From positions 576,001-640,000 of the forward strand of contig OY970067.1 of NCBI GenBank assembly GCA_963705305.1: DNA of 64,000 nt, given 5' to 3'. The position numbers and the translations under genes are program-made. Origin of the DNA: an uncultured Methylomirabilota bacterium. GTDB taxonomy: Bacteria; Methylomirabilota; Methylomirabilia; Methylomirabilales; 2-02-FULL-66-22. Of this stretch, positions 29,070 to 38,878 are shown one piece after another. The notes beneath the pieces are model-generated. The model saw only the letters and a program-made list of their open reading frames with translations, was not told the origin of the DNA and searched no databases. Position 1 is the stretch's first letter; every line of letters begins with the position of its first letter.

Positions 29070-29879
29070 ATGGGTCTCCGGGTCGTCAAGAAGACGCGGA
29101 TTTACGAAGACATCGTGGAACAGATCCGGCAGCTCGTGGCCCATGGACACCTAAAGCCGGGGGACCAACTCCCCCCCGAGCGAGAGCTCTCCGACAAGTT
29201 CCAGGTCAGCCGGGCTTCGGTCCGGGAAGCTATCCGCGCCCTGGAATCCATGGGGCTGGTGACCAGCCGGTCGGGCGAAGGAACCTACGTCGCGACCAGC
29301 ATCGAAGCCATCTTTGCCCCGCTGGCAGCGGCCCTCTTGAAAGGGAAGGACACCCTGATCCACATCTTCGAGGCCCGGAAGGTGCTCGAGCCCGAAATCG
29401 CCGCCATAGCGGCCGAGCGGGCAACGCCGGCGGAGGTCAGCAATCTGACCCGCATCTTGCGAGAGCAAGCCCAGGCTATCGCCTTTGGAGGCACCGGGGT
29501 GGAAGCCGACAATGCGTTCCACTCAGCCTTGGCCCACGCCACCAAGAACACTTTCTTCCTGCGCCTCAACGACACGATCGTCGACAGTCTCATCGAAGCC
29601 CGAAGGCAGTATCTGCAGACGCCCGGCCGGGCCGCCCGATCGCTGGCGGGTCATCGCGAGATCCTGAAAGCCATCCAGGCCGAGGACCCGGACGCGACCA
29701 AGCGTGCCATGCTGGCGCACCTTGAGACCATCGAAGAGAGCATTCTGTTCAAACCAACCACGCACACCAGGAAGGAGGCGGCAACCGCCAAGAACGGGTC
29801 CTGGTCATCTAGCGGGAGGGCTGTGGGAATCGAAGGGCTCCCACGGAAGAGGAGGAATGGATATGACCGGCTCGGTTGA
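29070..29879 (+). CDS. FadR/GntR-family transcriptional regulator
   Basis: LKPGDQLPPERELSDKFQVSRASVREAI wHTH plus FCD domain. Confidence 0.93.
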   Translation: MGLRVVKKTRIYEDIVEQIRQLVAHGHLKPGDQLPPERELSDKFQVSRASVREAIRALESMGLVTSRSGEGTYVATSIEAIFAPLAAALLKGKDTLIHIFEARKVLEPEIAAIAAERATPAEVSNLTRILREQAQAIAFGGTGVEADNAFHSALAHATKNTFFLRLNDTIVDSLIEARRQYLQTPGRAARSLAGHREILKAIQAEDPDATKRAMLAHLETIEESILFKPTTHTRKEAATAKNGSWSSSGRAVGIEGLPRKRRNGYDRLG

Positions 29880-31029
29880 AGTCGTCTACCGGGGAATCTT
29901 CCAGAAACACCTGGGACAGCGCATCACCCGCGCGGTGGTCCTGGCCGCCGTCAAGGAAGGCAAGGTCGGGATCTCCTTCGGGCGCTACGGAGACTCGCCG
30001 GAGCGAAACGGCATCCCGGCGAAGAGCTTCGCCGTGGTGGCGGATACGGAAGAGGAGCTCCAGGCGCACCTGGCCCGATATGAACCCAACAACAACGACA
30101 TCACGGTCGCCGTGGATGACACCCTGTGCAAAGGGGTCGAGTCCTGGGCCTGGTATGGTCTGCAGCCGATCAACAAGCTGACGCGTCCCGGCGGAACGGT
30201 GCTCGTCACCTCGATCCAGGCCCCCGAGGAGCTGATCAAGGATTGCCACCGGAAGGACGCGGAGTGGAACCTGGCCGTCCTCAAGGGAACGGCCAGCTTC
30301 TCGGGGCTCTGGGTGTACAAGGATGACCACACCGACGTGCGGGTGCTGGGGGCCATCGCCAAGTTGGCGCCGCACGTCGTCAAGCTCGAATCGGTAGAGG
30401 CCGCCATCCGGGACGAGTGGAATGACGAGCTCAAGGTGGCCTCGGCCCGCAAGGCATACGAGCGGGTCCAGAGCCGTCGGGTCGGGCCGAACGAAGGCAA
30501 TGCCGAGAAGCCGTACGAGTTCCGGCTGCTCACGTGGCAGGAAATGAAGGAGGGACTGGTCATCCCCGGCATCCCCGTCAAGCAGGAGGTCGAAGGGTGG
30601 GACGGGGGCTATCGCCCGGGCCGGAATCCCACCTTCAAGAAGTTCTCCACGCGCACCATGCGGCCGGTGGTGGACTTCGACATCTGCACCAAGTGCACGC
30701 TCTGCTGGCTGCAGTGTCCTGATTCCTGCTTCGACGTAACGCCCAGCGGCCACTACGACGCCAACATGGAGGCGTGCTGCGGCTGCGGCGTCTGCGAGGC
30801 GGTCTGCCCGGTGGAGCACTGCGTCACCATGGTGAACGAGCAGGTCTTTCAGGACAACGCCAGCCAGTTCGAGGCCTACGAGAGGGACAGGGAGGCCTAC
30901 AAGGCCTGGGTCAAGCAGGCGATCGAGAATAAGACCGTCACCCACCGGGAGCACGGCTTCCGCTACCCGGGGCAGTATCAGGAGGAGATCGCCGAGGCGG
31001 CCGTACGCGGCGAGGGGGCCGGCGACTGA
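29863..31029 (+). CDS. 2-oxoacid:ferredoxin oxidoreductase fused gamma-delta subunit, oxalate oxidoreductase-like
   Basis: YGDSPER gamma-type domain fused to CTKCTLCWLQCP and CCGCGVCEAVCP 2x[4Fe-4S] motifs. Confidence 0.85.
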   Translation: MTGSVEVVYRGIFQKHLGQRITRAVVLAAVKEGKVGISFGRYGDSPERNGIPAKSFAVVADTEEELQAHLARYEPNNNDITVAVDDTLCKGVESWAWYGLQPINKLTRPGGTVLVTSIQAPEELIKDCHRKDAEWNLAVLKGTASFSGLWVYKDDHTDVRVLGAIAKLAPHVVKLESVEAAIRDEWNDELKVASARKAYERVQSRRVGPNEGNAEKPYEFRLLTWQEMKEGLVIPGIPVKQEVEGWDGGYRPGRNPTFKKFSTRTMRPVVDFDICTKCTLCWLQCPDSCFDVTPSGHYDANMEACCGCGVCEAVCPVEHCVTMVNEQVFQDNASQFEAYERDREAYKAWVKQAIENKTVTHREHGFRYPGQYQEEIAEAAVRGEGAGD

Positions 31030-31131
31030 CCGCTCGGACCTCGTGGAGAGGGGCGGCGCGGTCCGTTCGGTTCTTCCGGACCGGCACCCGCCGCTGGATC
31101 GACGTATCGGGATCACCATGGAGGTGACGAA

Positions 31132-32355
31132 ATGAGCACAGCGACCGTATCGGCGCCCGTCGCCGAGAAACAGATGTTGATGAGCGGCTGTGCCGCCATC
31201 GCTCAGGCCTTGCGCCTCGCCAACCTGGATGTCGTGACCGCGTATCCTATCCGTCCCTACGACACCGTGATGCAGGCGGTGGCCAAGCTGATCGCCAACG
31301 GCGAGCTGGATGCCGAGTACATCGTGGCCTCCAGCGAGCACGACCAGTTCGAGATCGTCAAGCACGCCTCCGCCGTGGGTGCCCGTGTGTTCTGCGGCAG
31401 CAGCGGCGTGGGCTGGATGTACGCCATGGAAGCCCTGGCGGTGACGCCTGCCCTGCGCCTCCCCCTGCTGGCGCTGGTGGGAAACAGGGCCCTGGACGAC
31501 CCGGGGGCCTTCGGCTGCGAGCACAACGACGCCCTCTGCGTGCGGGACCTGGGCTGGATGCTCACCTGGGTGGACACCGCCCAGGAGGCGCTGGACACCG
31601 CCCTGATCTGCTACCGGGTGGCGGAGGATCCGCGCGTCTTCCTGCCCTGCGCCATCGGCGCGGATGGGGCCTTCCTCACCCACTCCGAGGCCATGGTGAA
31701 GGTCCCCACGCAGGACCAGGTGGATCGCTTCCTTCCCAAGTACGACCGGGGAGACAAGCTGCTCCACCCGGACAACCCCATCACCGTGGCACCCCAGGCC
31801 AACGAGGACTGGGTGATGGAGATCCGGAAGCAGAACGACGAGGCCATGCGCCGGGCGCGCGGGGTGATCCAGGAGGCGTACCAGGACTATCACCGGATCT
31901 TCGGCCGCCAGGAGGGCAACCCCTTCGTGGAAGAGTACATGACCGAGGATGCCGAGGTAATCCTGTTCGGCCAGGGCACGCTGTCCCTGCCGGTGAAGGT
32001 GGGGGTGCGGAAGCTCCGGGAACAGGGCCACAAGGTCGGCTTCGTACGCCTGCGCTGGTTCCGCCCGTTCCCGACCCCGGAAGTCCAGAACGCCCTGCGG
32101 CGGACCAAGGCCGTGGGGGTCATCGACCGCGACTACTCGTTCGGGTCGCCGAACCACGGGGCGGTGCTCTACAACGAGGTCCGCTCTGCCCTCTACGACC
32201 TGGATCAGCGGCCGCACGTGATCAGCTACATTTGCGGTCTGGGCGGCCGGGAGGTGACACTGGACAGCGTGACCGAAATGAGCGAGATCCTACTGAAGAT
32301 CGCCAAGAGCGGCAAGGTGGAACAGCCCAATTACTGGATTGGGGTGAGGGGGTAA
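31132..32355 (+). CDS. Oxalate oxidoreductase-like alpha subunit
   Basis: YPIRP in place of PFOR YPITP; SEH, GSSGVG, NRALDDPG, FRPFP motifs. Confidence 0.85.
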   Translation: MSTATVSAPVAEKQMLMSGCAAIAQALRLANLDVVTAYPIRPYDTVMQAVAKLIANGELDAEYIVASSEHDQFEIVKHASAVGARVFCGSSGVGWMYAMEALAVTPALRLPLLALVGNRALDDPGAFGCEHNDALCVRDLGWMLTWVDTAQEALDTALICYRVAEDPRVFLPCAIGADGAFLTHSEAMVKVPTQDQVDRFLPKYDRGDKLLHPDNPITVAPQANEDWVMEIRKQNDEAMRRARGVIQEAYQDYHRIFGRQEGNPFVEEYMTEDAEVILFGQGTLSLPVKVGVRKLREQGHKVGFVRLRWFRPFPTPEVQNALRRTKAVGVIDRDYSFGSPNHGAVLYNEVRSALYDLDQRPHVISYICGLGGREVTLDSVTEMSEILLKIAKSGKVEQPNYWIGVRG

Positions 32356-32360
32356 TCGCC

Positions 32361-33419
32361 ATGGCGACAGGAACAGAACTGACCGTAGTTCCGACCCAGA
32401 TGTTGAAGCCCTTCAAGGGCGTGAAGAACGTCAGCGTCGAGGAGTATTTCACCTCGGGGCACCGCACCTGCCAGGGCTGCGAGTCCGCCCTGGTGATGAA
32501 GCTGATGGTCAAGGCTGCCGGTCCCCGAACCATCGTCCTGGGCTCGACCGGCTGCATGTACGTGGCCAACACGACCTACTACTCCACCTCCTGGGTGGTG
32601 CCCTGGATGCACACCCAGCTCGGCGCCTCCGGCTCGGCTGCAATGGGCACCGCCGCGGGCCTGAAGGTGCTCATGCGCAAGGGGCGCATCAAGCAGGAGC
32701 CGATCAACGTGATTGCCTTCTGCGGCGACGGCGGGGGGGCGGACATGGGGCTGTCCTCCATCTCGGCGGCCCTGACCTACCCGGAGTACAATTTCCTGAT
32801 CCTGATGTACGACAACGAATCCTACGCCAATACGGACATCCAGCTTTCCAGCATGACCCCCTACGGGGCCAACACCACCTTCTCCCCCCCGGGGAAAGCC
32901 CGGCGGCTCCTCCACACCCGCTGGAAGAAGAACGTCGCCGGCATGCTGGCGGCGGGCCATCCGGAGTGCCGCTACGTGGCGACCGTGGATGCCTCTTACG
33001 CCCTGGAGATGATGAACCGGGTGCGGAAAGCCCTCTCTATCGGCGGCCCCACCTTCATCCACTCCCTGGACCCCTGCCCCAAGGGCTGGGATTACGACCC
33101 GTATATCTCTCACGAGCTGGGCGAGCTGGCCGTGGAGACCGGCGTCTGGCCGCTCTTCGAGGTCGAGGACGGCGTTCTTCGGTTCTACGGCAAGTCGAAG
33201 GCCATCGCCCAGGGCCGCAAACGGAAGCCCGTCCGGGAGTACCTCCTCAAGCAGGGGCGTTTCGCCCACTTCACCGAGGAGGATATCGACTACTTCCAGA
33301 AGAAGATCGACCTGATGTGGGAGCGGTGGATGCTGCCCGGCGTCGCTGCCTTCACCTTGTCGGACGACATCCGCAAGACCTTGGCCAAGTCGGAGGCCGA
33401 GCTGGCTTCCGCCAAGTAG
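32361..33419 (+). CDS. Oxalate oxidoreductase-like beta subunit (TPP-binding)
   Basis: GHRTCQGC, GCMYVANT, GDGG, DNESYANT, PCPKGW motifs. Confidence 0.88.
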   Translation: MATGTELTVVPTQMLKPFKGVKNVSVEEYFTSGHRTCQGCESALVMKLMVKAAGPRTIVLGSTGCMYVANTTYYSTSWVVPWMHTQLGASGSAAMGTAAGLKVLMRKGRIKQEPINVIAFCGDGGGADMGLSSISAALTYPEYNFLILMYDNESYANTDIQLSSMTPYGANTTFSPPGKARRLLHTRWKKNVAGMLAAGHPECRYVATVDASYALEMMNRVRKALSIGGPTFIHSLDPCPKGWDYDPYISHELGELAVETGVWPLFEVEDGVLRFYGKSKAIAQGRKRKPVREYLLKQGRFAHFTEEDIDYFQKKIDLMWERWMLPGVAAFTLSDDIRKTLAKSEAELASAK

Positions 33420-33433
33420 AGACCGGGAGGTGC

Positions 33434-33471
33434 GGCAAACGGGGCGTTCCGGAGGGAACGCCCCGTTTGCC
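33434..33471 (+). terminator. Strong hairpin after the oxidoreductase operon
   Basis: 17-bp perfect stem GGCAAACGGGGCGTTCC, loop GGAG; weak U-tract. Confidence 0.6.
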
Positions 33472-33562
33472 TTCCGCGCCGTCTCTGTCTCCGCTGTCTG
33501 GCCTTCCTGCGACTCCGCCTCCCCGGCCTGTTCATGCCTCGATTCGACCCATGTGATGGAAC

Positions 33563-33573
33563 TGGTCTGACCA
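33563..33573. promoter_or_regulatory. Putative FadR-family operator TGGTCTGACCA
   Basis: Palindrome matching the half-sites at 29019-29045. Confidence 0.65.
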
Positions 33574-33680
33574 TTTGGCCGGCCTCTTCACATCGTTTGG
33601 TCTGGCCCCAGGCAGAGCAGGCTGGTTTTCATCCTTCAACTGATCAAAGGCCGGCCTGGCCGGAAATGAGCTGCCGGAAT

Positions 33681-33709
33681 TTGACAGGCGGACGGAGCCC
33701 TGTTACCCT
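33681..33709 (+). promoter_or_regulatory. Putative sigma70 promoter for leader 1 / oxlT-1
   Basis: TTGACA-N17-TACCCT with extended -10 TG. Confidence 0.6.
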
Positions 33710-33763
33710 TATATTGTCTTGATGCCTCCGGAGAGTCGATGGCGGCCTGGAGGGGCATTCGAA

Positions 33764-34145
33764 ATGCGTAGAGAGCGAGCGGTCCAGGGGCTGGTGGGTT
33801 CTAGTCCTTGTAGCTCTCCTGGCATGTGGGAGTTATTTCATCTTCAATGTTCTTGACCTGAACGGAACAAGATTTGCCGCCCGCTGCGCCGACAATGGCG
33901 TCGCCGCGGTTGACACATCGGATCTTGACGCGGACCGTCTCCTCCGAACCTCCCTCGCATCGACGGATCCGCTTCACCTTGCCAGTCCCTTGCTGCTTGC
34001 TGATGCCGCTCTCGAAGCTCCCGGGCTCATGCTCTCCACGCTCCCGGGAACGCCCTCCCCTCACCAAGACCACACGATCCTCCCGCGGGGAGGTCTGATC
34101 CGAGAGAGGTCCTCGACGCGCCCTTCAACCCCCGATCCCGCTTGA
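33764..34145 (+). pseudogene. Membrane-anchored leader ORF copy 1 (frameshifted near 33791; possibly a sequence error)
   Basis: GGAGGGG RBS plus ATG MRRERAVQG, then the +1 frame reads WWVLVLVALLACGSYFIFNVLDLNGT...STPDPA*, homologous to 36173..36559. Confidence 0.75.
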
Positions 34146-34424
34146 CCTTCGACCATAACGAGCCGGGCGAGCCACGGCGTAGTGTTTCCCGGCGGTGGCA
34201 TGCCCTGGCCTCGTCCTTCGTCTCCAGGTGATTCTGCACCCTGTCTGCTGCTCGACCGGCATTCCCCCGGGGGGGAGGCGGGGCGCTGGCCTCCCGGGAG
34301 CAGATTCGCGGCCAATTCACCTGTGGACGAGAGAGCGTAAGCCCTCGGTGCCTGTCAACCGTCGATGTCCGATAGGATTTCGAGACCCCGCCGGATCGCT
34401 CCGGTGGGGAGGAGGATTCGAGCC

Positions 34425-35762
34425 ATGGCCACCCCAAACAAGGCCGTATCGTTGAGTCAAAGCTCCGAACCTCTCGTCAACCGCTGGTGGCAGCTCGTGG
34501 CGACCATCATCGCCATGATGGCCATCGCAAACCTCCAGTACGCGTGGACCCTGTTCACCACCCCCCTCACCCACACTCTCGGCGCCTCCCTGGCGGCCGT
34601 CCAGGTGGCCTTCGCGGCCTTCATCCTGACGGAGACCTGGCTGGTGCCCTTCGAGGGGGTCCTGGTGGACCGCTTCGGGCCCAAGCTGGTCATCATGGCG
34701 GGTGGTGTGCTGGTCGGCCTGAGCTGGATCGGCTCCGGCCTGGCCCACTCTCTGACGACCCTGTACATCTCCTACGCCTTAGGCGGCATCGGGGCGGGGG
34801 CCGTGTACGGCGCCTCCATCGGCCACTCCCTGAAGTGGTTTCCGGACCACCGGGGCCTGTGCGCCGGGCTGGTCGCTGGGGCGTACGGCATCGGGACGGC
34901 GGTCACGGTGGCGCCGATTGCACACATGATCAAAGTCTCGGGGTATGCGCATACTTTCGTGGTCTGGGGCTTCATTCAGGGGGCCATCGTGCTGGTGGCG
35001 GGCTACTTCGTCCTAGCCCCGCCCCGGGGCTGGAAGCCCGAGGGCTGGGACGAGAAGGCGGAGGCCACCAGCAAGCGTGTGAACCGCTCGGCGGTTGACC
35101 TGAACCCCGGGCAGATGCTCAAGCAGCCCTCCTTCTGGGCACTGTACGTCATGATGACCCTCATGGCCTTCACCGGCCTGGTCATCACCGCCCAGCTCAA
35201 GCCCATCGCCGTGTTCTACCACGTGGACAAGGTGGTCGTGGCATTCGGCCTGACCGCCCTGGTCCTGGCCATCCAGATCGACCGGATCCTCAACGGGGTG
35301 ACCCGGCCCTTCTGGGGGTGGGTGTCCGACCACCTCGGGCGCGAGAACACCATGTGCATCGCCTTCGCGCTGCAGTCCGTGACCATCCTGGCGCTGATGC
35401 AGTGGATCCACCACCCGATCCTGTTCATCCTCCTGTCCGGGTTCGCCTTCTTCTCGTGGGGGGAGATCTTCTCCCTGTTCCCCGCCGCGACGGGCGATCT
35501 CTTCGGCCGGAAGCATGCCGCCACGAACTACGGGATCGTCTACACCGCGAAGGGCCTGGCCTCCATCTTCGCCGCGCCGGTGGCCGCCCTCGTTTCTGTC
35601 GCCGAGGGCTCCTGGCTGCCCATCTTCTGGGCCATGGTGTTCTGCAGCGCCCTGGATGCGGTCCTGGCCCTGGTCTGGCTGAAGCCCCTAGCGAAACGGC
35701 ACGCGCAGAGGAGCCTCGCCATGGCCGGTGCCACCAGCCCCGCCCCCCACGCGGCGGACTGA
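34425..35762 (+). CDS. oxlT: Oxalate/formate antiporter (OFA) family MFS transporter
   Basis: NLQYAWTLF, KWFPDHRG, NGVTRPFWGWVSD (Arg), YTAKG (Lys) motifs. Confidence 0.88.
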   Translation: MATPNKAVSLSQSSEPLVNRWWQLVATIIAMMAIANLQYAWTLFTTPLTHTLGASLAAVQVAFAAFILTETWLVPFEGVLVDRFGPKLVIMAGGVLVGLSWIGSGLAHSLTTLYISYALGGIGAGAVYGASIGHSLKWFPDHRGLCAGLVAGAYGIGTAVTVAPIAHMIKVSGYAHTFVVWGFIQGAIVLVAGYFVLAPPRGWKPEGWDEKAEATSKRVNRSAVDLNPGQMLKQPSFWALYVMMTLMAFTGLVITAQLKPIAVFYHVDKVVVAFGLTALVLAIQIDRILNGVTRPFWGWVSDHLGRENTMCIAFALQSVTILALMQWIHHPILFILLSGFAFFSWGEIFSLFPAATGDLFGRKHAATNYGIVYTAKGLASIFAAPVAALVSVAEGSWLPIFWAMVFCSALDAVLALVWLKPLAKRHAQRSLAMAGATSPAPHAAD

Positions 35763-35770
35763 GTTGGCAA

Positions 35771-35800
35771 CAGGGAAGGGGGGTCGTCCCCCCTTCCCTG
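35771..35800 (+). terminator. Hairpin after oxlT-1
   Basis: 13-bp stem CAGGGAAGGGGGG/CCCCCCTTCCCTG; no U-tract. Confidence 0.5.
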
Positions 35801-36109
35801 CGCCTCATGCGGGATACAGGCGTGTGAAATGATCACGCCCTGTCCGGGACGGCCCAGGCAAGACTCATAGGGCAAGACAGCTCGAGCGGCAATGCGAGCC
35901 TGCCTTTTCAGCCATGGCGGAGCTGCCCTCCTTGTGGCAGCCCTGACGTTCATGCTGATCGCGTTGCCGGGCGCGGCAGGGGCGGCGCCCGGCCCGATCT
36001 CCTCCCTCCACGGCTACCATCCGATCGCAACCGTTCCCTTTTCTTTCGGGCATATTGAAGGGCGATTGTCCACGTGCTGAGCCCTGCCGATTAGTGGTGC
36101 GAATTCTCT

Positions 36110-36138
36110 TTGACGAAATTTTCATTTCTTTGTAGGAT
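36110..36138 (+). promoter_or_regulatory. Putative sigma70 promoter for leader 2 / oxlT-2
   Basis: TTGACG-N17-TAGGAT. Confidence 0.6.
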
Positions 36139-36172
36139 GCCGGCGTCGTCGTCCTTGAATGGGGGACGCCGC

Positions 36173-36559
36173 ATGCGGTTGTTCAGGCGACAAAAGCAGC
36201 AGTCATGGAAATGGTGGTACGTGGTACTGTTTGGACTCCTGGCAATCGGGACATACGTGGTCTTTGATGTTTTGGACATTGACGGTTCGGAGCTAGCTTC
36301 GTGGGACTTGGCGAATAATCTGACCGCGCTCGAGTCGGCCGAACCATCGAGTTGTCGTCCACCACAGATCGTCCCACCAGAGCGATCACTTCCTTCCGCC
36401 GACGACCACCTCTCTCAGTGGCTCAATGCGCAGAGTCAGCAGGGCGCCTCATCCATAAGCACCGGCTTGACGCGTGCTCGCCACGCCCCGACTCTCGCCC
36501 GAATACGTTTGGCCTCCGAATTGACAGCCTCAAATTCCCTCTCCGCTGATCCTGCCTGA
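36173..36559 (+). CDS. Membrane-anchored leader ORF copy 2 (128 aa, unknown function)
   Basis: GGGGGA RBS; MRLFRRQKQQSWKWWYVVLFGLLAIGTYVVFDVLDIDGS...SADPA*; paralog at 33764. Confidence 0.75.
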   Translation: MRLFRRQKQQSWKWWYVVLFGLLAIGTYVVFDVLDIDGSELASWDLANNLTALESAEPSSCRPPQIVPPERSLPSADDHLSQWLNAQSQQGASSISTGLTRARHAPTLARIRLASELTASNSLSADPA

Positions 36560-36744
36560 CCCCCCTTGCCAGACGAGACGGACGGATTCATGTGGTCCGT
36601 CTCTCGACGGCACACCGCTGAAAGACCCTCGCTCGCATCCGGTACTCATGAGCGGATCCTAGTGTGCGATCGGTCGAGCGCCGTCGATTGACGAAATAGG
36701 TTGTATGCCCCGCTGGTTCCTCAACGGGAAGGAGAATTCGAGTC

Positions 36745-38076
36745 ATGTCCACCCCAAGCGCATCTTCTGACCGCAGCGTGGCCGCCCCGGTCAACCGATG
36801 GTGGCAGATGGTGGCCGCGATCATCGCCATGATGGCCATTGCCAACTTGCAGTATGCCTGGACCCTGTTCACCACACCCCTCACCCAAAGCCTGAATGCG
36901 AGCCTCGCGGCCGTCCAGGTGGCCTTCGCCGCCTTCGTGCTGGCGGAGACGTGGCTGGTGCCCTTCGAGGGCGCTCTGGTCGATTATTTCGGCCCGCGAG
37001 TGATCATCATGGTGGGAGGCGTCCTGGTCGGGCTCGGCTGGATCGGGTCGGGATTGACCAGCTCTCTGGGAGGGCTGTACTTCTGGTACATCCTGGGCGG
37101 TGTCGGAGCGGGCGCCGTCTATGGCGCCTGCATCGGTCACGCCCTGAAGTGGTTCCCGGATCACCGCGGCATGTGCGCCGGCTTCGTCGCCGGGGCATAT
37201 GGGATCGGCACCGCGGTCACGGTGGCCCCCATTGCAGCCATGATGAAGTCCTCGGGCTACGCCCACACCTTCGTGGTATGGGGGTTCATCCAGGGGATCA
37301 TCGTGCTGGTGATGGGCCTCTTCATCATCCGGCCCCCGGCTGGCTGGGCGCCAGCGGGCTGGGCGGAAAAGGAGGCGACCATCCGGGCGCACATCAACAC
37401 TTCGACAGTCGATTTGCACCCGGGGCAGATGGTCAAGCATGGCTCTTTCTGGGTCATTTACTTCATGATGACCCTGATGGCTTTCACCGGTCTGGTGATC
37501 ACGGCCCAGGTGAACCCCATTGCCGTGTTCTACCACGTGGACAAGGTCGTGATCGCCTTTGGGATGACCGCCCTGGTCCTCGCCATCCAGATCGAGCGCA
37601 TCCTGAACGGCATCACCCGTCCCTTCTGGGGATGGGTCTCCGACCATATCGGCCGTGAGAACACGATGTTCATCGCCTTCGGGCTGCAGTCCCTGACGAT
37701 CGTCGCCCTGCTGCAGCTCATTCACCGGCCGGTGTGGTTCGTGGTCCTGTCCGGTCTGGCGTTCTTCTCGTGGGGGGAGATCTTCTCCCTGTTCCCCTCG
37801 GTGACCGCCGACTTGTTCGGGAAGAAGTACGCCACGACGAATTACGGGATCGTCTACACCGCCAAGGGGCTGGCCTCGATCTTTGCCGGGCCCGTGGCGG
37901 CCCTGGCCAAGTCGGCAACCGGGTCCTGGGTCCCTGTCTTCTGGGCCATGGTGATTTGCAGCGGGGTGGATGCAGTGCTGGCCTTGGTCCTGCTCAAGCC
38001 CCTTGCCCGGCGGACCGTCCAAGAGACGATGAAATTGGCCGGGGGCACCCGTCCCGCTCCCCACGCGGCGGACTGA
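36745..38076 (+). CDS. oxlT: Oxalate/formate antiporter (OFA) family MFS transporter, paralog
   Basis: Colinear with the first copy; same motifs and the same C-terminus PAPHAAD. Confidence 0.88.
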   Translation: MSTPSASSDRSVAAPVNRWWQMVAAIIAMMAIANLQYAWTLFTTPLTQSLNASLAAVQVAFAAFVLAETWLVPFEGALVDYFGPRVIIMVGGVLVGLGWIGSGLTSSLGGLYFWYILGGVGAGAVYGACIGHALKWFPDHRGMCAGFVAGAYGIGTAVTVAPIAAMMKSSGYAHTFVVWGFIQGIIVLVMGLFIIRPPAGWAPAGWAEKEATIRAHINTSTVDLHPGQMVKHGSFWVIYFMMTLMAFTGLVITAQVNPIAVFYHVDKVVIAFGMTALVLAIQIERILNGITRPFWGWVSDHIGRENTMFIAFGLQSLTIVALLQLIHRPVWFVVLSGLAFFSWGEIFSLFPSVTADLFGKKYATTNYGIVYTAKGLASIFAGPVAALAKSATGSWVPVFWAMVICSGVDAVLALVLLKPLARRTVQETMKLAGGTRPAPHAAD

Positions 38077-38181
38077 GGCCAAGGCGAAGCTCTCCTGTTC
38101 CTGTCTGGGATCACAGACCGAATGGGCCGCACCCGATCTCCGGGTGCGGCCCATTTCTTTCGGAGCCGGATGGACAAAAGC

Positions 38182-38878
38182 CTAGCGCGCGTCCGGCCCC
38201 TCGATCGGTTTCACGGGGGGAACGGGCCGTTGCGCCTCTCCGCGCGTCCGTCGGACGGCGTCCAAGAACTCCCGCGCCCGGCCCGCAATTTCATGCCACC
38301 GACCATTACGCACGAGATCGCCCTCCGTCAGGGCGCCGCCCACCCCGACCGCCAGCGCCCCGGCGCGAACGAACGCTCCGACATCCGCCAGCGTGATGCC
38401 CCCGGCAGCGACCAGAGGAATCTGCGGCGCGGCGGACGGCCTGGAAGTACCGAGGGCCGACGGCGCCCGCCGGACACATCTCTACAAGGGCGGCCCCATG
38501 CTCCCAGGCCATGGCGATCTCCCCGAGAGTGAACGCGCCGGAGATGACCGCCACGTCCGTCTCGCGGCCCAACCGGATGAGGTCGGCGATGATGTAGGGC
38601 GTCACCAAGAACTGCGCCCCCGCCCCGATGGCCTCGCGTCCGGCCTCGGCCGTGGGGATGGCTCCGACGCCGATCAACAGATCGTTTCCCATGGCGGCGC
38701 GAATCCGCCCGACCCCCCGGAGAATTTCCGGATGGGTCGCCACGATCTCCACCACCGGGCGGCCCGCCTCCCGGAGGGATTTCGCCGCCGGCAGCAGATC
38801 CTCCGACCGCTCGGGCCGCAGGATGACGATCAAGCCTTCTGCCCGAATCCGCTCGATCGCATTTGGCTGCACGCTCAA
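38182..38878 (-). pseudogene. KDPG/KHG aldolase (Eda)-like, frameshifted near 38430 and lacking the Schiff-base Lys
   Basis: GAQFLVTP; VEMCPA in place of VKxFPA; after the shift PQIPLVAAGGITLADVGAFVRAGALAVGVGG continues to TAG at 38182. Confidence 0.75.

Follow-up and report, generated by a model that had tools for sequence, protein, structure and literature searches.

A widespread family of membrane-anchored small proteins encoded at the head of envelope operons, with candidate cis-acting sensory leaders upstream of two oxlT genes in a Methylomirabilota bacterium

In this work, we focus on two related small open reading frames (ORFs), each of which lies upstream of an oxalate/formate antiporter gene (oxlT) in a 64,000-nucleotide stretch, hereafter the window, of the genome of an uncultured Methylomirabilota bacterium (assembly GCA_963705305.1, contig OY970067.1, positions 576,001 to 640,000). 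We find that these ORFs belong to an unnamed and widespread family of membrane-anchored proteins of about 128 residues, otherwise disordered by prediction, whose genes head operons of envelope systems. We further propose, with moderate confidence, that each of these ORFs is a cis-acting sensory leader of the CruR and CutF kind, coming from a family that is unrelated to DUF2946. That the leader is read out through Rho in particular is put forward more tentatively.

The two leader-oxlT modules lie on the + strand and share the same layout. In module 1, the leader ORF is an open frame (33723..34145) that ends in D-P-A and TGA and is matched by the family profile described below (E 4e-37 at G000:C1:609771-610142). 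It is followed by a spacer of 279 nt (34146..34424) and by oxlT copy 1 (34425..35762, 445 aa), whose ATG at 34425 has GGAGGAGGA just 5' of it. In module 2, the leader ORF is intact (36173..36559), with an ATG at 36173, 128 codons and a TGA at 36557-36559, and a spacer of 185 nt (36560..36744) separates it from oxlT copy 2 (36745..38076, 443 aa). The original prediction, which had been made from the DNA alone, had placed the ORF ends about 280 and 185 nt before the transporters, in agreement with these measurements, and it had rightly named the transporters: both MFS proteins exceed the NCBIfam equivalog cut-off for the oxalate/formate antiporter TIGR04259 (467.7 and 458.9 bits vs 335).

The relatedness of the two small ORFs is also real and far beyond chance, as can be seen both from their direct comparison by BLASTP (E 7e-13, with 18/51 identities across the transmembrane (TM) segment and the motif that follows it) and from the layout of the whole family. 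In copy 1, the TM segment (33792-33845) runs into the juxtamembrane motif F-N-V-L-D-L-N-G-T (33843-33869; 33792..33869 together), which is three positions off the family consensus, and the C-terminal block reads L-P-R-G-G-L-I-R ... D-P-A followed by TGA (34080..34145). In copy 2, the corresponding elements are a TM segment at 36206-36265 with the motif F-D-V-L-D-I-D-G-S at 36263-36289 (36206..36289 together) and a block L-A-R-I-R-L ... D-P-A followed by TGA (36494..36559). The DNA of both copies contains GATCCYGCYTGACC, as had been noticed, and both end in D-P-A-TGA-C-C, with Pro and Ala codons that differ synonymously. Since the layout shared by the two copies is conserved family-wide, it is a property of the family rather than a coincidence of this locus.

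A sigma70-like promoter had been claimed for each module, and this stands in full for module 2 only. There, TTGACG-17-TAGGAT (36110..36138) has 9/12 consensus matches and is the sole sigma70-like site found by the consensus scan in 33300-38300, where shuffles lead one to expect 0.6. The site of module 1, TTGACA (33681-33686) followed after 17 nt by TACCCT (33681..33709), is weaker than had been stated and falls below the pass mark of the scan. Neither spacer holds a promoter-like or terminator-like site by the same scan. No Rfam family was found in spacer 1, and Rfam over 33300-37000 returned two sub-threshold microRNA (miRNA) model matches and nothing else.

The predicted length of about 126-128 codons holds for copy 2, while copy 1 turns out to be an open frame without an in-frame start. 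Its frame (WWVLV...DPA) meets no stop from 33723 until the TGA at 34143-34145, and no ATG, GTG or TTG occurs in it before 33990; the ATG at 33764-33766 sits in a different frame. The break of frame is thus real in this assembly, as had been suspected, and only its position, given as a +1 shift near 33791, has to be revised. Indeed, the open frame already reads E-R-S-R-G-W-W ahead of the TM segment, in accordance with the family consensus R-R-S-x-x-W-W, so that the break more likely falls between 33767 and about 33776, near the ATG, than in the GGGG run at 33786-33789. The public contigs, from three DNA runs, leave 33600-34027 uncovered, and the break may be either an assembly error or a mutation.

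The family itself is large. Six-frame searches of the window's own genome yielded at least 11 copies, comprising nine open frames and two degraded ones (with an in-frame TAG and a frameshift, respectively). We built a profile from nine copies and searched it against 1.84 billion proteins. This gave 234 cluster representatives at E<=1e-3, of which 87 reach E<=1e-10. The original prediction had suggested such a search, and a conserved length, a conserved end and a positional link were all found. Among the best 150 representatives, the median length is 126 aa (quartiles 119 and 129), F[DE][VIL]LD[VLI]DGS occurs in 103 and a [DE]P[AVLF] end in 105, with a consensus that contains no PP. For the 94 representatives that have both features, the distance from the motif to the end has a median of 97 residues and falls within 95-99 residues in 67, so the stretch between the motif and the C-terminal block is conserved in length and not in sequence. 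Members are thus built of a basic N-terminus followed by a single TM helix, the near-invariant F-D-V-L-D-L-D-G-S, a spacer and (L/R)-P-R-x-x-L...D-P-A-stop. Anchoring 107 representatives at their C-termini shows conservation of R at -26 (61), of P at -20 (58), of R at -19 (71) and of L at -16 (45), together with L or R at -21 and a Ser/Pro/Thr/Ala-rich run from -10 to -4; this set was picked on the end motif, so its D-P-A follows by selection.

The basic N-terminus and the hydrophobic helix of about 20 residues amount to an N-terminal export or membrane signal of the signal-anchor type. Its R-R-S-x-x-W-W is a poor fit to what we take to be the consensus of the twin-arginine translocation (Tat) pathway. 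AlphaFold2, run on copy 2 with a 43-row alignment, gives one helix at residues 6-47, and the remainder has a predicted local distance difference test (pLDDT) score of 54-64, so the tail of the leader is predicted to be disordered. The ORF is conserved at the level of its translation, as the codon turnover demonstrates: the 9 codons of the motif occur in 72 distinct DNA versions, with all synonymous codons in use. In the contig loci that were fetched by an amino-acid pattern (see below), the residues were fixed by that pattern, and it is the codon turnover alone that counts as evidence there. A near-identical contig shows one I-to-V and one synonymous change within the ORF.

No existing name could be attached to these proteins. 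For 23 members from three subfamilies there was no Pfam match at E<=10, PF11162 (DUF2946) included; the two window copies matched no family at E<=0.01, and there was no NCBIfam match either. The only name found on family members is 'hypothetical protein', a word-index homology search with copy 2 returned copy 2 itself as its sole match, and the ESM Atlas gave no usable match for the leader. The motif strings occur in none of the papers searched, and a search pairing upstream ORFs, tatA, Rho and the taxon was likewise empty as regards this family.

The genomic position of the family is as telling as its anatomy. In the window's own genome, 7/9 open-frame copies are upstream of, and co-directional with, secondary transporters of organic anions that come from five superfamilies: the two OxlT, an MFS metabolite/H+ symporter that adjoins galactarate-dehydratase-like genes, LctP, TctC-TctB-TctA, a DASS symporter and DctP-Q-M. 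The remaining downstream genes encode a weakly matched receiver-domain protein and two ORFs without a Pfam match. At 22 loci of the same genus, the gene downstream is such a transporter in 7, tatA and/or tatC in 4, GT2 in 2 and a response regulator in 2; VTT, TonB_C, GGT, an outer membrane protein (OMP) barrel and HD occur once each, and 2 loci have no co-directional gene. We also fetched 65 contig loci with the exact pattern FDVLDLDG, 36 of which have a Pfam match downstream. These comprise OEP and/or HlyD/CusB-type genes (23), tatA (5), PMT_2 (2) and, once each, MFS, TctBA, GT2, an ABC ATPase, a response regulator and polyamine synthesis genes. In all, nine loci have a family ORF ahead of tatA and/or tatC.

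Within the phylum, the family is present in 25/151 sampled genomes, and 17/20 of the copies examined outside the window's genus precede efflux genes of the OEP-HlyD-AcrB type. The efflux-linked members make up a second subfamily, which ends in ...G-Y-R-I-A-L-P-R-S-S-P-S-D-P-F-Q-S-L and has a spacer of about 46 nt. Related contigs are labelled Binatia, Methylomirabilis and Acidobacteriota. One and the same family is thus found ahead of MFS, LctP, DASS, TTT, TRAP, Tat and RND systems. Regarding the class of gene downstream, the homologs mostly head envelope systems, one ORF to an operon and on the same strand. These systems include several unrelated transporter folds, and some of the genes are not transporters at all. 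The spacers from leader to next gene, at 100-350 nt, are unusual between operon partners, and the G+C content at third codon positions (GC3) of the leaders, 0.62-0.81 vs 0.8-0.9 in neighbouring genes, indicates weak codon adaptation.

Some of these loci have particularities of their own. At L024, L027, L035, L073, L077, L108, L118 and L134, the TatA-family gene that follows the leader carries a C-terminal zinc ribbon (Zn_Ribbon_1 / DUF7575 matches), an unusual architecture for TatA. A DDE transposase gene stands immediately upstream of the leader-DASS module, on the same strand (L021 9156-10604; G000:C1:5064156-5065604). At G000:C1:168668-170304 (L016 8668-10304), about 890 nt separate two copies in a head-to-head arrangement, with part of a Bmp/PnrA-like binding-protein gene in between; each copy faces a downstream gene of its own (an MFS symporter for one and a receiver-domain protein for the other). 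Finally, two degraded copies, in one of which TAG replaces a Trp codon, flank a Crp-like regulator gene at G000:C1:3355561-3357239 (L019 8561-10239), which means that the family both expands and decays in this genome.

At the RNA level, the main signal is an excess of C over G around the leader stop. In 30 loci of the D-P-A type, this excess spans about -200 to +50 relative to the stop, while C and G are about equal in 300 control genes, and the last 30 nt of the leader ORF have 0.51 C and 0.17 G. C/(C+G) reaches 0.63 at the four-fold sites within the final 66 codons, vs 0.50 for control genes and 0.51 for the earlier portion of these ORFs; since the loci are related, the p-values of this test overstate the difference. 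In both window copies, a C>G bubble extends over about 300 nt and reaches about 50 nt into the spacer, at 33896..34207 in module 1 (maximum C-G of +0.26 in 78-nt windows) and at 36306..36617 in module 2 (maximum of +0.27 at 36488-36565). The genome has one rho gene. The last three codons of D-P-A-type leaders (34134-34142 and 36548-36556 in the window) are also peculiar: GAT is used 21 times vs 9 for GAC, as compared with 74 vs 125 elsewhere in these ORFs, CCG occurs in 3/31 and GCG in 0/24, and this skew runs counter to the high-GC3 habit of these genomes.

Pairing and folding gave less. Minimum free energy (MFE) folds do pair the ORF end with the downstream ribosome-binding site (RBS) in 5/7 own loci. 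The mean duplex energies, -15.7, -15.9 and -15.1 kcal/mol, show the ORF 3' end to be no better than two upstream control windows. For efflux-type members, a stem can form between GGAGGGA, 46 nt downstream, and the ORF end (its final two codons together with the stop's first base), with 86% of cells paired over 14 loci; this stem has no covariation support, 137/500 shuffles reach the observed pairing, and RNAalifold gives the 14 efflux-type spacers a consensus energy of -2.8 kcal/mol with a covariation term of 0.01. The folding z of the two window spacers is +0.40 and -2.42. A GAGCCGGA box (GAG[CA]CGG[AG]) is found 14-15 nt past the stop in 8/31 D-P-A-type loci with differing downstream genes, including both window copies (34160-34167 and 36575-36582). 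The box of copy 2 forms the 5' arm of a 9-bp hairpin that begins 15 nt past the stop, but no consistent structure was found for the box.

We can now outline how such a leader might work. The nascent chain would be inserted N-in/C-out, so that its acidic motif would come to lie on the outer side of the membrane. The dwell of the ribosome at (L/R)-P-R-x-x-L...D-P-A-stop would then be set by the state of the exported part, be it a bound cation or ligand or the ease with which the acidic segment is translocated. A dwelling ribosome would mask the C-rich tract and exclude Rho, so that transcription could proceed through the 185-280 nt spacer into oxlT, while fast release would bare the tract and let Rho terminate within the spacer. 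In the efflux-type subfamily, with its spacer of about 46 nt, unmasking of the downstream RBS would be the likelier read-out. The stalling, the Rho route and the signal are the inferred parts of this scheme. A metal-binding role of the acidic motif is a guess, to which the relatives that head czcCBA-like efflux operons lend no more than contextual support.

The closest described parallels are the DUF2946 leader ORFs, which are copper-sensing in the case of CruR and CutF. The proven leader cruR of Bordetella pertussis (Bp2923; DUF2946, PF11162) is described as having a signal peptide, a CXXC at a fixed spacing of 45 residues and, as its C-terminal arrest motif, a RAPP that stands three residues before the end. 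Its C>G bubble extends out of the ORF into the spacer, and termination there depends on Rho (PMC9426467); the spacer measures 162 nt (PMC9426467, PMC9973294). For cutF of Rhodobacter capsulatus (DUF2946-like), the description comprises a signal peptide, a CXXXC, a PPP and a stem-loop over the cutO RBS (bioRxiv 10.1101/2025.02.05.636593), and CzcI of Cupriavidus metallidurans, upstream of czcCBA and with no proline motif at its C-terminus, is counted as CutF-like by the CutF authors (PMC9973294).

As in the CruR described there, the present family consists of ORFs of more than 100 codons that head an envelope-transporter operon, carry an N-terminal export signal, have a conserved sensor motif at a fixed distance from a C-terminal motif and are poorly structured by prediction; the C>G bubble likewise begins within the ORF and closes inside a long spacer, in a host that has Rho. 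Unlike CruR, however, the family has no PF11162 match (0/23 members, E<=10), its motif is the acidic F-D-V-L-D-L-D-G-S with no conserved Cys pair in place of C-x-x-C, its end is D-P-A-stop and not RAPP, its spacing is about 97 residues and not 45, and its TM segment resembles a signal anchor rather than a cleavable signal. Its targets are carboxylate transporters, Tat and RND systems, and it is multi-copy in one genome. With CutF, the family would share the principle of an exported chain that, while still nascent, detects a periplasmic cue and thereby governs the gene that follows, and the stop-adjacent pairing of the efflux type recalls the cutF-cutO stem-loop; the family differs from it in having no polyproline and, in the window subfamily, long spacers and no pairing signal. 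CzcI is resembled by the 17/20 copies of the phylum's other genera that lie directly upstream of czcCBA-type efflux genes. No relation to it was found through the PF11162 profile, a comparison that did not involve the CzcI sequence itself. The family has the architecture and position of CruR and CutF, and differs from them in sequence, Cys motif and proline motif.

A further likeness is with TnaC, a cytoplasmic peptide of 24 residues with a Pro at its end, in which a conserved C-terminus abuts the stop, the spacer is long and a Rho loading site adjoins the stop. The family has the abutting C-terminus, the long spacer and a putative Rho loading site by the stop, and it differs from TnaC by its length of about 128 residues, its membrane anchor and its D-P-A end.

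The original prediction had proposed an arrest-peptide-like leader on the model of SecM, MifM and VemP. The anatomy of the family, its place at the head of operons and the C>G bubble support this in part. For a SecM/MifM-type RBS stem, MFE folds show the pairing in most own loci, and the duplex energies are no better than in shuffles. As in the SecM, MifM, VemP and RAPP-type substrates, the ORF upstream of the presumed regulated gene combines N-terminal targeting with a spacer and an element conserved at the C-terminus, and the nine loci ahead of tatA and/or tatC do concern protein-localization machinery. The two surveys of arrest peptides near localization genes that were searched contain neither tatA, tatC nor twin-arginine. 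We nonetheless consider it improbable that the family is a force sensor in the strict sense, in which the pull of insertion would free the arrest and report on Sec/YidC capacity. The TM segment is about 97 residues from the end, so its insertion would be done well before the ribosome reaches the stop; there is no arrest motif of the SecM, MifM or VemP kind; most targets are solute transporters or efflux pumps (oxlT in the window; transporter, RND and tatA/tatC genes elsewhere) rather than Sec/YidC; and an invariant acidic motif would be superfluous for a pure insertion monitor. A small accessory subunit, the other option that had been offered, is unlikely as a specific partner, since one family precedes at least five transporter superfamilies as well as Tat and RND systems and, unlike dedicated subunits such as TctB and DctQ, is not limited to one transporter type.

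A protein acting in trans is the main rival, though a less likely one than the cis-acting leader. It would be a small membrane protein with a TM anchor and a disordered periplasmic tail that bears short linear motifs, acts on a common partner (a protease, a kinase, an insertase or an envelope scaffold) and modulates the adjacent envelope system. A near-invariant motif at the membrane surface and a second block at the free C-terminus are what one would expect of binding motifs; the predicted disorder of the tail, the C-terminal extensions conserved in some subfamilies, which point to use of the end at the protein level, and the copies ahead of regulators or enzymes fit as well. This leaves unexplained, however, why there are 11 paralogs that are each tied to a different operon in one orientation, why their spacers and codon adaptation are as described above, and why G is depleted at synonymous sites in the 3' part. 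As for a decaying duplicated element or a functionless chance ORF, which the damage to 3/11 own-genome copies (copy 1 without a start, one with an in-frame TAG, one frameshifted) might evoke, we hold it to be extremely improbable: the 234 divergent representatives with conserved length, motifs and synonymous codon turnover, along with the presence of the family in 25/151 genomes sampled from the phylum and in contigs that bear the labels Binatia and Acidobacteriota, already contradict it.

Several observations weigh against the cis-acting sensory leader that we favour. It is the juxtamembrane motif that is conserved most strongly, at a distance of about 97 residues from the C-terminus, and this fits a contact of the finished protein, be it with a protein or a ligand, equally well. 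To our knowledge, D-P-A-stop is not a known arrest motif; the family end has neither RAPP nor polyproline, and in some subfamilies there is a conserved extension past D-P-A or another end, such as ...L-P-R-S-S-P-S-D-P-F-Q-S-L. Copy 1 has no start codon though its oxlT is intact, several downstream genes are not transporters (GT2, GGT, HD, response regulators), and in one relative of the same genus (L026) the leader faces a convergent thiamine pyrophosphate (TPP) enzyme gene. On the RNA side, the C richness is in part a product of the Pro/Ser/Thr/Ala-rich composition, and the enrichment of post-stop structure is weak (mean z -0.63, p 0.02, n=31). Duplexes between the ORF 3' end and the downstream RBS are no better than dinucleotide shuffles (median p 0.64, with 6/71 <0.05), although such shuffles retain the CU-rich composition, which may itself be the adaptation.

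A bolder version of the sensory leader can be formulated, which we regard as quite doubtful. Through its nascent chain, the family would sense either membrane energisation or a divalent cation in the periplasm and would gate gradient-driven envelope machines in cis: translocation of the acidic juxtamembrane segment would set the dwell at D-P-A-stop, operon by operon, for secondary carboxylate transporters, RND efflux pumps, TonB and the Tat translocase. This reading fits the bias toward gradient-driven systems and the acidic nature of the translocated motif; if it were true, the set would include the first leader ORF tied to Tat.

More generally, if these ORFs are cis-acting sensory leaders, the principle of CruR and CutF, by which a nascent exported chain senses conditions outside the cytoplasm and controls the next gene from within the ribosome, would not be a copper speciality of one Pfam family but a convergent and general design. 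This design would use other sensor and end motifs, would have grown to about 11 operons in one genome and would reach from carboxylate uptake to heavy-metal efflux and the Tat pathway, and (L/R)-P-R-x-x-L...D-P-A-stop would be a new candidate for a termination-proximal arrest sequence. The family also gives an identity to a gene that annotation pipelines label hypothetical or overlook.

As to the surroundings of the two modules, three genes directly upstream of them (29857-33416) have as their best NCBIfam matches the delta, alpha and beta subunits of oxalate oxidoreductase, all below the curated cut-offs, and the locus looks like an oxalate catabolism island. A perfect GC-rich hairpin of 11 bp, with the loop TCGT and no U tract, lies at 35773-35798, 11 nt past the stop of oxlT copy 1; it is the source of one of the two sub-threshold miRNA-model matches and probably marks the end of the module 1 transcript. 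Between oxlT copy 1 and the promoter of module 2, there is in addition an ORF of 62 codons (35892-36080) that has no Pfam match and starts like a signal peptide.

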